Source: an archaeon (GTDB lineage Archaea; AGJL01; Methanococci; Methanococcales; Methanocaldococcaceae). From it: a stretch of 64,000 nt of DNA. A model generated the notes under the pieces. It did no database searches, was not told where the DNA came from, and was given only the letters and a program-made list of their open reading frames with translations. Of the stretch, positions 46,071 to 46,292 are shown piece by piece. The number at the start of each line of letters is the position of its first letter. The first letter of the stretch is position 1. The position numbers were made by a program, and so were the translations under genes. Where the stretch lies: assembly GCA_024278985.1 (NCBI GenBank), contig JAJRSC010000015.1, positions 1 through 64,000 on the forward strand, given 5' to 3'.

Positions 46071-46292
46071 TTTACTTTTTTATAACTATTAAAAATCTTA
46101 ATAGGTAAAATATTTCCTTTTTATGCTTTACTATTCGATTAAAATCGTAATATATAGGGGTTTTGTTATTATTATTTAATGAAAAATGTAAAAAATAAAA
46201 CTTTAAAAAAGTAAAGAATAGTTGGCGATGATACCTCGGTATAGAGGCGGAGCCAATATTAAGGGACTACCCAACCACCATAGAGGTGGCAA
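46071..46292 (+). repeat. direct repeat copy 1: promoter plus structured 5' leader of the peptide cassette
   Basis: Aligns by eye with 48515-48740; the 3' ~140 bp is nearly identical. Confidence 0.9.
46217..46290 (+). promoter_or_regulatory. cis-regulatory RNA leader: kink-turn hairpin plus RBS-sequestering hairpin (copy 1)
   Basis: TTGGC-GAT-GA-TA-CCTC-loop-GAGG-CG-GA-GCCAA, then GGG-ACTA-CCC and CCACC-ATAGA-GGTGG covering the RBS. Confidence 0.7.

Follow-up and report, generated by a model that had tools for sequence, protein, structure and literature searches.

A putative kink-turn and Shine-Dalgarno hairpin leader on genes for small exported proteins in Methanococcales

Structured 5' leaders control the messages that carry them in several ways. 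In bacteria, thermometers and leader hairpins such as ROSE and fourU sequester the Shine-Dalgarno (SD) sequence. Kink-turn leaders of ribosomal-protein genes, such as the eL15 leader (RF03144) and that of L30e, control the operon of the binding protein itself through rRNA mimicry. Kink-turns also form in box C/D RNAs, whose consensus boxes are RUGAUGA/CUGA. The closest systems are archaeal mRNAs regulated by L7Ae via 5'-UTR kink-turns; the excerpts of two studies used here describe such elements in l7ae autoregulation, in nop5, and in other Sulfolobus mRNAs (Daume et al. 2017, PMC5539422; Huang, Ashraf and Lilley 2019, PMC6298567). According to the excerpted text of the latter, every kink-turn studied folds upon L7Ae addition, and 3n = G or 3b = C combined with a C:G pair at -1b:-1n leads to ion-induced folding and is absent from the regulatory l7ae kink-turns that it covers (PMC6298567).

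Here, we analyzed a window of 64,000 nt from an archaeon of the Methanocaldococcaceae (GCA_024278985.1, contig JAJRSC010000015.1, positions 1 to 64,000), which contains a 149-nt direct repeat (46150-46298 and 48598-48746; identity 97%, spacing 2448 nt) upstream of two genes for small, putatively exported proteins (Table 1). The repeat holds a structured motif that is real, conserved with compensatory changes, non-coding, and located inside the transcript in a relative. The leader formed by this motif probably controls the two small secreted-protein genes after transcription.

Table 1. Positions of the leader elements and neighboring genes in the window
Feature	Position	Strand	Description
Palindrome CGATTAAAATCG, copy 1	46136..46147	+	Immediately 5' of TATA box
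Palindrome TGATTAAAATCG, copy 2 counterpart	48582-48593		
Candidate TATA box AATATATA, copy 1	46149..46156	+	Followed by GGGG
Candidate TATA box TATATATA, copy 2	48597-48604		
A-rich single-stranded 5' segment AAAAAAGUAAAGAAUAG	46205..46221	+	Copy 2: 48653-48669
Kink-turn hairpin, copy 1	46222..46256	+	64.2 bits with covariance model R1
Small spacer hairpin GGG-ACUA-CCC	46263..46272	+	Copy 2: 48711-48720
SD-sequestering hairpin, copy 1	46275..46289	+	Anti-SD CCACC (46275-79), loop AUAGA, SD GGUGG (46285-89)
103-aa protein gene, copy 1	46294..46605	+	Signal-peptide-like N-terminus (..ILKGFAALIILGMVGALVAEPVALGN..), Gly-rich hydrophobic C-terminus
93-aa hydrophobic small ORF	46663..46944	+	Directly 3' of 103-aa gene
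Orphan cassette	46932..47190	+	5'-truncated, frameshifted copy of mature C-terminal part
Kink-turn hairpin, copy 2	48670..48704	+	4b:4n G-C, rest as copy 1; 68.3 bits with R1
SD-sequestering hairpin, copy 2	48723..48737	+	CCACC 48723-27 / GGUGG 48733-37
99-aa protein gene, copy 2	48742..49041	+	Shared signal-peptide module (..MVGALIAEPVALGD..), C-terminal part unrelated to copy 1
110-aa hydrophobic small ORF	49086..49418	+	3' of 99-aa gene

A preliminary description, made from the letters alone, had drawn a kink-turn hairpin in both copies, a single A/G difference that becomes a Watson-Crick pair in copy 2, and a downstream hairpin occluding the ribosome-binding site. Each of these readings holds on re-reading of the sequence. 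In copy 1, the C stem pairs UUGGC (46222-26) with GCCAA (46252-56) and is followed by the GAU bulge, beyond which come tandem G.A/A.G pairs, a U:G at 3b:3n, and (A/G)CCUC facing GAGGC, with CCUC/GAGG paired around the 6-nt loop GGUAUA. The copies differ within 46217-46290 solely by A at 46233 versus G at 48681, each facing C, so that 4b:4n is an A.C mismatch in copy 1. By RNAfold, the 84-nt leaders reach -25.4 (copy 1) and -29.9 kcal/mol (copy 2), with z values of -3.28 and -4.10 and none of 200 shuffles folding equally well, whereas the opposite strand is a weaker outlier (z -2.71; 3 of 200 shuffles as good). A strict generic kink-turn-hairpin descriptor matched five sites in the entire 1.1-Mb genome, against 0, 1, 0, 0, and 0 in five block-shuffled genomes; copy 2 is among the five, and copy 1 was excluded solely by its A.C mismatch.

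A first screen with blastn and a regular expression turned up homologous leaders in genus g3 as well as in same-genus genomes, and 28 distinct hairpins served as the source of the covariance model R1. Across the 40 Methanococcales genomes searched with R1, which are also our phylum-level set, 17 have matches, always co-oriented with and 5' of an ORF: 11 of 16 in genus g1 plus the window's genome, 2 of 2 in g3, 3 of 13 in g2, 0 of 7 in g4, and 0 of 1 in g5. Two loci stand outside the ORF-based counts, L024 with a decayed stem that fails the regular expression and L033 with an ATG at +135 and a probably wrong ORF call. Two matches of the regular expression, L021:1778 and L025:1685, lie inside coding sequence with stems of 3-4 bp and were dropped as chance. 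The core GGC-GAU-GA...GA-GCC is invariant among the 28 distinct hairpins. Over 42 distinct rows, the C helix GGC/GCC is unchanged or G.U-substituted and the GAU bulge is fixed, giving the C helix and 3-nt bulge of a simple kink-turn, while the invariant GA on both strands supplies its tandem G.A/A.G pairs. The -1b:-1n pair is C:G in every copy and 4b:4n is G-C in 39 of the 42 rows. Among 57 leader hairpins (a count that leaves out 2 matches inside coding sequence), 3b:3n is U:G in 34, C:U in 9, U:U in 7, U:A in 5, and A:U in 2, so that 43 have 3n = G or 3b = C. Tandem pairs of hairpins occur in 11 of 46 leaders, and the distance from kink-turn to ATG ranges from 23 to 45 nt.

The preliminary description expected the motif to stand or fall with covariation among homologues, and covariation was found. 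In 51 R1 matches (42 distinct), 93.0% of cells pair, compared with 77.3% in shuffles, none of 500 being as high, although A2 was model-fitted, which biases counts toward pairing. The covariation score is 0.445 versus 0.169 in shuffles (again 0 of 500 as high), and slid-register controls pair in at most 41.7%. Four of the five NC-stem pairs show changes on both sides, with variants including CCUC/GAGG, CUCC/GGAG, CCC/GGG, GGAC/GUCC, and AAUAG/CUAUU. A conserved switch in which the 5' strand of the NC stem, ACCUC, would pair with the window's SD as GAGGU was rejected because the stem covaries away from that pairing in homologues. The suggestion that the motif may be undescribed holds within the searches made: Rfam 15 gave no match at E <= 10 in window positions 45000-50000 and no leader match at E <= 1 in five homologous loci, and no description of the motif was found in the literature searched. 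A pattern scan of contigs returned 65 stretches; apart from one on a contig of a Methanococci MAG, they lie in unrelated, mostly bacterial records and are taken as chance. The scan is uninformative on distribution because it missed genomes with exact matches known from R1.

The second part of the leader is the short SD hairpin, with ATGs at 46294 and 48742, 4 nt past the SD. The SD begins 29 nt past the kink-turn hairpin, in a separate hairpin and without contact to the kink-turn, and the published occlusion mechanism is therefore not directly transferable. In this it is unlike the SD of the l7ae leaders, which belongs to the kink-turn helices. In all 30 leaders having a GGTG SD, at least three-quarters of the SD is paired with upstream bases (mean MFE -6.72), compared with 119 of 237 control genes (50%) of the same genome (mean MFE -2.78, sd 1.99), and the window value of -11.4 lies below that of every one of the 237. 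Support for this stem thus comes from enrichment and recurrence rather than covariation, because the SD stem hardly varies. Nearest-neighbor prediction for the window hairpin gives -11.4 kcal/mol at 37 °C, rising to about -3.6 at 65 °C and, by extrapolation, reaching 0 at 85 °C. The SD is predicted to be paired at 37 °C in 35 of 35 leaders, all of which show similar predicted melting, near 0 at 85 °C by extrapolation, in keeping with the marginal stability of a thermometer. From these modeled energies, we infer that the hairpin may behave in a thermosensor-like manner. The small spacer hairpin between the two structures is not kept in homologues, whose spacers vary in sequence and length.

The preliminary description would have been undone by a transcription start downstream of the hairpin. 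In RNA libraries from one same-genus relative, G009, an organism other than the window's, the 5' ends instead lie upstream of it. At locus L076, with the hairpin at 1507-1541 and the ATG at 1573, 1827 raw reads of library X14 cross the hairpin and give it a depth of about 1700. These reads begin at L076:1490 (1473 reads), 1491 (203), 1489 (37), and 1459 (19), the ends at 1490, 1491, and 1489 being adapter-joined, which places the abundant end 17 nt before the hairpin. By homology, the window equivalent of L076:1490 is the first A of the A-rich segment, and same-genus leaders keep the block AAAAAA(U/G)UAAA(G/A)AAUAG preceded by Y. A 385-nt RNA contig from X10 covers L076:1492-1876, contigs from X1 and X6 run from 1468 and from 1543 to beyond 1900, and X1 has adapter joints at 1466/1468. 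In excerpts of a same-genus promoter study, the rule is TWTATATA, whose 3' edge precedes the start by 23 +/- 2 nt (PMC2699501). The G009 TATA box at L076:1426-1433 fits the minor end at 1459. The abundant end may be a processed one, because no consensus TATA box lies 23 +/- 2 nt upstream of it. In the window, primary starts are predicted from the TATA boxes near 46180 (copy 1) and near 48628 (copy 2). The sequence CTTTAAAAAAGTAAAG, considered as a TATA box with a start inside the hairpin, was dropped, since the mapped G009 5' end shows that the block is transcribed. The palindrome next to the copy 1 TATA box is a candidate transcription-factor operator, and related palindromes of the GATTTAAATC type stand, by eye, at the equivalent position in homologous loci.

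The explanation that we favor, and that on balance appears probable, is a structured 5' untranslated leader in which an L7Ae-docked kink-turn and the SD hairpin together set translation and 5' survival. The GC-rich block would be the mRNA 5' leader of a small exported protein. Its first part, which begins 10-17 nt behind the RNA 5' end, would be a kink-turn hairpin of the box C/D type, and its second, before the ATG, the short hairpin pairing the anti-SD with the SD. The genome encodes L7Ae (G000:C25:3930-4196) apart from the leader genes, and we propose that archaeal L7Ae docks on the kink-turn. Because the naked kink-turn hairpin is predicted to be barely stable near the growth temperature of about 85 °C, L7Ae binding would lock it. 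The leader RNP and the SD hairpin would then set the translated share of the message and the survival of its 5' part, with output tracking the free L7Ae pool and temperature. The sign may be repressive, and the two hairpins may be coupled. Since most copies have ion-induced-folding features absent in l7ae kink-turns, the self-folding-type sequence would suit a constitutive protein anchor more than a switch between on and off states.

Several other explanations have to be weighed against this one. Translation of the block into an N-terminal extension starting at TTG 46222 (copy 2: 48670), as given in the ORF track and in several public annotations, is hardly credible: both window copies keep an open frame and public clusters of 120-126 aa exist, but an in-frame stop separates hairpin and ATG in 34 of 40 homologous leaders, spacer length varies out of frame, the SD is spaced 4 nt from the downstream ATG, and base pairing, not codons, governs the substitutions. 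The 24-aa extension that the preliminary description had listed against itself thus falls away; the leader is an RNA element, not protein, and the true start of the 103-aa gene is its ATG. We find it rather unlikely that the leader is a stability element, with control at a step other than translation, whose folded or L7Ae-bound kink-turn bars exonucleases that degrade 5'-to-3' and sets the mature 5' end. The multiple G009 5' ends (1459, 1466/1468, and 1490-1492) suit such a role, as do a dominant end at a constant 17 nt from the hairpin without a consensus TATA box upstream, a self-folding-type sequence suited to a permanent anchor, and an SD outside the kink-turn. However, ends drawn from four libraries cannot separate primary from processed, for a structure that protects the end, a single-stranded 5' tail of 10-17 nt is long, and in g3-type leaders a consensus TATA box is, by eye, properly spaced to start transcription at the same A-run, which favors a true start site in those leaders. 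A small RNA or RNP of its own, about 45-85 nt long, for example an L7Ae sponge or a trans-acting RNA, with the gene reached by read-through only, would account for the X14 library, in which all 1827 reads are short inserts within L076:1459-1572, depth drops from about 1700 on the leader to 0.57 in bin 1573-1593 and to 0 over the remaining coding region, and a few 3' joints lie just past each hairpin (1542, 8 reads; 1569, 13 reads). A 5'-end-specific or size-selected library would yield an identical picture, though, contigs of X10, X1, and X6 start within the leader and enter or cross the gene, and neither hairpin is followed by a U-tract terminator, which makes a separate RNA distinctly unlikely.

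Temperature alone is a very unlikely controller. Its case is that the SD hairpin would be closed below the growth temperature and open near 85 °C, the kink-turn being an inert box C/D sRNA remnant, and both the predicted melting, alike in all 35 leaders, and the enrichment of SD pairing over the 237 control genes are consistent with it; an inert remnant, however, would neither hold an invariant core with compensatory stem changes over three genera nor be tandem-duplicated in 11 of 46 leaders. Those tandem hairpins could instead mimic C/D plus C'/D' in a minimal box C/D RNP of L7Ae, Nop5, and fibrillarin that assembles on the leader for methylation or as mere mimicry. Some copies do carry perfect boxes (for example GUGAUGA...CUGA in g2 second hairpins and AUGAUGA in g2 first hairpins), but CGGA or CAGA replaces CUGA in most, there is no guide, the 5-11-nt loop leaves no spacer between boxes and no target-pairing stretch, and Rfam C/D models miss the leaders at E <= 1 yet match a true sRNA, so that we consider this RNP highly improbable.

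The leader is tied to one class of genes, those for small exported proteins. Behind it come a common signal peptide, hypervariable C-termini, and then small membrane ORFs. Pfam and NCBIfam gave no family for the downstream proteins, including the 103-aa, 93-aa, and 110-aa ones; nor did a protein atlas (scores <=0.83, with faint glycine-zipper rows left unused), and the named relatives of the 99-aa protein are all "hypothetical protein" of Methanocaldococcus. From their position, the 93-aa and 110-aa ORFs are candidate immunity or partner proteins. The orphan cassette is missing a promoter and a leader as well as most of the signal peptide; in two frames it matches the full-length protein at L062 over residues 22-65 and 74-106, beginning at the conserved AE..LGDI junction. 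A wider, doubtful reading joins these parts into a "launch module" in Methanococcales: a palindromic operator, TATA box, L7Ae/C/D-RNP docking leader, SD hairpin, and signal peptide ending AEPVALGD would drive polymorphic secreted bacteriocin- or toxin-like proteins with membrane partner ORFs, orphan C-terminal cassettes would serve junction recombination, the master switch after transcription would be L7Ae or a whole C/D-type RNP, and the leader would live on in a stable small RNP. If so, production of competition factors would be tied to the state of ribosome biogenesis, and this would be the first L7Ae regulon beyond RNP housekeeping genes.

Few 5' UTRs of this genus are structured; in the excerpted promoter study of a same-genus species, only 1 out of the 134 leaders mapped was predicted to be stable at 85 °C (PMC2699501). 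A non-coding leader means that gene calls translating through the hairpin, such as the public 120-126-aa models, would be corrected, and it would supply Rfam with a new cis-regulatory family. The locus further points to a so far unstudied system of cassettes for variable peptides that hyperthermophilic methanogens secrete. To our knowledge, L7Ae-kink-turn control of mRNA has so far been demonstrated for l7ae, nop5, and a small number of Sulfolobus messages; its known reach would be widened by a covarying kink-turn leader that occurs in several copies and sits on accessory genes for exported proteins.

Among the systems outlined above, the leader resembles ROSE and fourU in its short SD/anti-SD hairpin, whose predicted melting falls within physiological temperatures, but it belongs to a hyperthermophilic archaeon, its stem has just 4-6 bp, and it is always joined to a protein-type kink-turn module. 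As in the eL15 and L30e leaders, the kink-turn may by analogy be a protein docking site, whereas the genes here are unrelated to the ribosome. The terminal kink-turn of archaeal C/D sRNAs has the same register and letters (GGC-GAU-GA-U-G...C-U/G-GA-GCC). R1 itself picked a true box C/D sRNA, L102, at 31 bits (Rfam sR39, RF01122, 73.7 bits), which shares the terminal GGCGAUGAUGA...CUGAGCC with the leaders, and an origin of the leader kink-turn from a captured sRNA end is plausible. A C-box-like GAUGAUG/GAUGACG is always present and a perfect CUGA occurs in a minority (9 C:U and 7 U:U hairpins); unlike box C/D sRNAs, however, the leaders have no guide regions and no C'/D', a 5-11-nt loop closes the NC stem, they lie in mRNA leaders, and no Rfam C/D family matches them at E <= 1. 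The l7ae and nop5 leaders, as far as the excerpted accounts describe them, come closest: like them, the leaders here have, in a 5' UTR that also carries an SD, a simple kink-turn hairpin whose bulge is GAU and whose G.A pairs are in tandem. L7Ae is by analogy the likely ligand, and a post-transcriptional effect would be expected. Within the same accounts, the leaders described here differ from that type in targeting small exported proteins of no known family instead of RNP components, in having the SD 25-35 nt off, within a separate hairpin, rather than in or beside the kink-turn helix, in being of the self-folding type, with C:G at -1b:-1n and, in most copies, 3n = G or 3b = C, and in occurring as tandem double kink-turns and as several motif copies per genome.

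The two leaders of the window lie within direct repeats in very AT-rich DNA, and fainter similarity continues as far as 46063 on the upstream side and over roughly the first 100 nt of the two ORFs on the downstream side. The kink-turn hairpin and the hairpin occluding the ribosome-binding site, reported for both copies in the preliminary description, read as claimed, and the sole difference between copies over 46217-46290 is borne out (A46233 versus G48681, facing a C). The 84-nt leaders have predicted folding energies of -25.4 kcal/mol (z -3.28) and -29.9 kcal/mol (z -4.10), and none of 200 shuffles equals either fold. 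The 1.1-Mb assembly yields 5 matches to a strict generic kink-turn descriptor that requires a C stem of 3 bp, a 3-nt bulge, GA...GA, an NC stem of 4 bp or more, and a loop of 3-10 nt; five block-shuffled genomes yield 0, 1, 0, 0, and 0.

Coordinates of the two leaders, their promoters, and the neighboring genes in the window
Feature	Copy 1	Copy 2	Strand	Description	Basis
Direct repeat	46150-46298	48598-48746		149 nt each, 97% identical, 2448 nt spacing	
Palindrome beside TATA box	46136-46147	48582-48593		CGATTAAAATCG	
Conserved block at predicted primary start	46179-46215	48627-48663		ATGAAAAATGT..	
Equivalent of dominant RNA 5' end	46205	48653			homology to the G009 locus
Kink-turn hairpin	46222-46256	48670-48704			
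C stem	46222-26 with 46252-56		+	UUGGC with GCCAA	sequence
Bulge beside C stem			+	GAU, then GA on each strand, U versus G	sequence
NC stem and loop			+	(A/G)CCUC with GAGGC, loop GGUAUA	sequence
Shine-Dalgarno (SD) hairpin	46275-46289	48723-48737	+	CCACC with GGUGG, ATG 4 nt downstream	sequence
ATG	46294	48742			
Orphan cassette	46932-47190				
Small hydrophobic ORF after orphan cassette	47265-47468				
SpoIIM-like membrane ORF	47473-47835				
HicB-like and HicA pair, between the cassettes	48067-48514				

Blastn and a regular-expression screen turned up homologous leaders both within the genus and in g3, and 28 distinct hairpins, in all of which the core GGC-GAU-GA...GA-GCC is unchanged, were built into a covariance model of 43 positions and 10 pairs. 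The check for covariation among homologues was positive. In an alignment of 51 model matches from 29 sources (42 distinct rows), standard pairing reaches 93.0% of cells versus 77.3% when shuffled and the covariation score 0.445 versus 0.169 (0/500 shuffles as high in either case), pairing figures that are flattered by the fitting of the alignment to the model. Moving the 3' partners by 1-3 columns leaves pairing at 20-42%. Of the five NC-stem pairs, four show two-sided changes, each in 11-25 rows, and the inner C stem GGC/GCC is nearly invariant. Compensatory swaps are visible in the raw sequences (CCUC/GAGG, CUCC/GGAG, CCC/GGG, GGAC/GUCC, and AAUAG/CUAUU).

Among the 40 Methanococcales genomes searched, the model matches 17 at E <= 0.01: 11 of 16 in genus g1 plus the window's own assembly, both in g3, 3 of 13 in g2, 0 of 7 in g4, and 0 of 1 in g5. 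The window's assembly (G000; 30 contigs, 86% complete) contains these two copies only. All 46 distinct leaders are co-oriented with and 5' of an ORF or ORF remnant; 11 of them carry a tandem pair of kink-turn hairpins, and g2 genomes have arrays of up to five leader-gene units, ~1.5 kb apart. A g1 genome (G013, L050:2034-2079) also contains a double kink-turn leader in the g2 style, with UCAC pairing to GUGA in its SD hairpin and no ORF passing the filter; decay or transfer of a cassette may explain it.

Transcription was followed at the homologous locus of the relative G009 (L076; hairpin 1507-1541, ATG 1573). The RNA run X14 gives 1,827 raw reads there, the first mate antisense in all, with a depth of 0 before 1447, ~1700 over 1489-1530, 1070 over 1531-1551, 607 over 1552-1572, 0.57 over 1573-1593, and 0 over 1594-1900. 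Adapter joints place RNA 5' ends at 1490 (1,473 reads), 1491 (203), 1489 (37), and 1459 (19). Among RNA contigs from three other runs, that of X10 spans 1492-1876 (385 nt, whole-message size), and those of X1 and X6 run from 1468 and 1543, respectively, past 1900. The hairpin therefore lies inside the transcript in G009, 17 nt downstream of the dominant 5' end, and the X14 5' ends fall upstream of it, contrary to the earlier concern that RNA might start downstream. The minor end at 1459 fits a consensus TATA box (L076:1426-1433) at the spacing published for a same-genus species (23 +/- 2 nt; PMC2699501). No consensus TATA box stands at 23 +/- 2 nt upstream of the dominant end at 1490 in G009, so this end may be a processed one; g3-type leaders have, by eye, a good TATA box correctly spaced for initiation at the same A-run.

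Palindromes of the GATTTAAATC type occupy, in homologous promoters, the site equivalent to that of the window palindrome, a candidate operator, which would place the cassettes under transcriptional control as well. The conserved block at the predicted primary start opens, by eye, an ~11-codon mini-ORF, whose frame in some homologues extends to the UAG of AUAG or the UGA within the kink-turn GAUGA.

Gene calls have treated part of the leader as coding: the ORF track extends both window genes to a TTG within the hairpin, and public calls of 120-126 aa (clusters P0001, P0002, P0004, and P0005) translate through the kink-turn. In relatives, the NCBI models (100-106 aa) begin with the ATG. An in-frame stop separates hairpin and ATG in 34 of 40 distinct homologous leaders, counter-evidence to the N-terminal extension that the preliminary description had raised, and the hairpin-ATG spacers differ in length, out of frame. 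Translation of the GC-rich block is one of the alternatives to which we give little weight.

At 37 C, predicted folds pair the SD core in 35/35 distinct leaders. We compared the 30 leaders with a GGTG SD to 237 same-genome genes with the same SD: at least three of the four SD bases pair upstream in 30/30 (100%) versus 119/237 (50%), all four in 23/30 versus 49/237, and mean MFEs are -6.72 and -2.78 kcal/mol (sd of controls, 1.99). The window SD hairpin is predicted at -11.4 kcal/mol, and 0/237 controls are as low. By eye, the stem takes the forms CCACC/GGUGG, UCACC/GGUGA, CUCC/GGAG, UACC/GGUA, and an extended UUGCC...GGCAA, a variety suggesting that selection for occlusion has acted repeatedly; because the SD sequence is itself constrained, there is little formal covariation.

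On balance, we lean toward a mechanism in which L7Ae, the archaeal kink-turn-binding protein, whose gene is encoded in the window's genome, would dock onto the leader kink-turn, and the leader RNP and SD hairpin would jointly set translation and/or survival of the message. At 85 C, the temperature at which a same-genus species grows best (PMC2699501), nearest-neighbor rules predict 0 kcal/mol for the naked kink-turn hairpin of copy 1 and -1.9 kcal/mol for that of copy 2, so a protein bound to the kink-turn would still matter. The main rival, which we consider improbable, gives the kink-turn a purely stabilizing or roadblock role, and the ladder of RNA 5' ends would fit it.

Other alternatives weigh less. 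Read length exceeds every X14 insert, no insert extends past 1572, the base preceding the ATG, the 3' joints form small clusters just past each hairpin (1542 and 1569), and the coding region is without reads; these inserts could reflect a 5'-end or small-RNA library protocol or a stable leader fragment, and a separate small RNP derived from the leader is a minor contender. So is an RNA thermometer with an inert kink-turn, the predicted melting of the SD hairpin falling at 65-85 C. Perfect C- and D-box letters occur in some leader hairpins, chiefly those of g2, which would suit a minimal C/D RNP; however, box C/D sRNAs carry a guide and a C'/D' motif, whereas the leaders lack both and have only a 5-11-nt loop, and we give this reading little weight.

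A signal-peptide-like N-terminal module ending ..VGAL(V/I)AEPVALG(D/N).. is common to the window proteins (103 and 99 aa) and their relatives; past it they are fully divergent, many having Gly-rich, hydrophobic C termini. DNA identity between the copies is 145/150 in the leader and 29/30 over 46360-46389, then 6-19/30 per 30-nt block past 46390. Larger proteins (130-387 aa) also stand behind this leader, 8/9 with a hydrophobic, signal-peptide-like N terminus. The window proteins and their relatives have no Pfam or NCBIfam family, and named relatives are in every case "hypothetical protein"; the names attached to the closest homologues assign the window to Methanocaldococcus. Both window genes are followed by a small hydrophobic ORF, and another follows the orphan cassette, which copies the variable C-terminal part of a family member but is frameshifted and truncated at its 5' end. 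Its alignment to a full-length protein from the relative G003 covers residues 22-65 and 74-106 and begins at the conserved AE..LGDI junction; the cassette is without promoter, leader, or signal peptide. The HicB-like (70 aa) and HicA (81 aa, 65.4 bits) proteins form a toxin-antitoxin pair; the SpoIIM-like ORF matches only profile positions 2-114 of 163 and may be truncated or split. Judged by arrangement alone, the leader-gene units recall cassettes in which a bacteriocin or polymorphic toxin is paired with an immunity gene.

The leader hairpin shares its register with the terminal C/D kink-turn found in guide RNAs of archaea. Our model also retrieves a true box C/D sRNA (Rfam sR39) at L102:1069-1137 (G009:C1:35368-35436; 73.7 bits in the Rfam scan), whose termini (GGCGAUGAUGA...CUGAGCC) are identical in leader hairpins; L103 and L104 are likewise true sR39 sRNAs. 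Since the sR39 sRNAs match the leader's terminal stem and boxes letter for letter, there are hints that the leader derived from a captured sRNA end. The leaders themselves are unmatched in Rfam at E <= 10 in the window and at E <= 1 in five homologous loci, and a full-text literature search, most matches being judged from listing or abstract, returned no description of the motif, in keeping with the earlier suggestion that it may be undescribed.

Control of mRNA leaders by L7Ae on a kink-turn has precedents (PMC5539422, PMC6298567). The L7Ae gene of the window's genome has a GC-rich leader of its own (L105:1400-1440; G000:C25), with a perfect hairpin GGGCAAUCC-CUCC-GGAUUGCCC ahead of the SD GGAGGG. 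By the rules given in PMC6298567, ion-induced folding is conferred by 3b = C or 3n = G together with -1b:-1n = C:G, features that l7ae leader kink-turns lack. Every leader hairpin here has -1b:-1n = C:G, and 3b:3n is U:G in 34, C:U in 9, U:U in 7, U:A in 5, and A:U in 2 of 57; under those rules, 43/57 are classed by sequence as self-folding, because 3b is C or 3n is G. The motif differs from l7ae-type leaders in three defining features (the gene, the SD inside the kink-turn, and the non-self-folding sequence). It looks comparable to these leaders in action and apparently sRNA-derived, a member of neither group.
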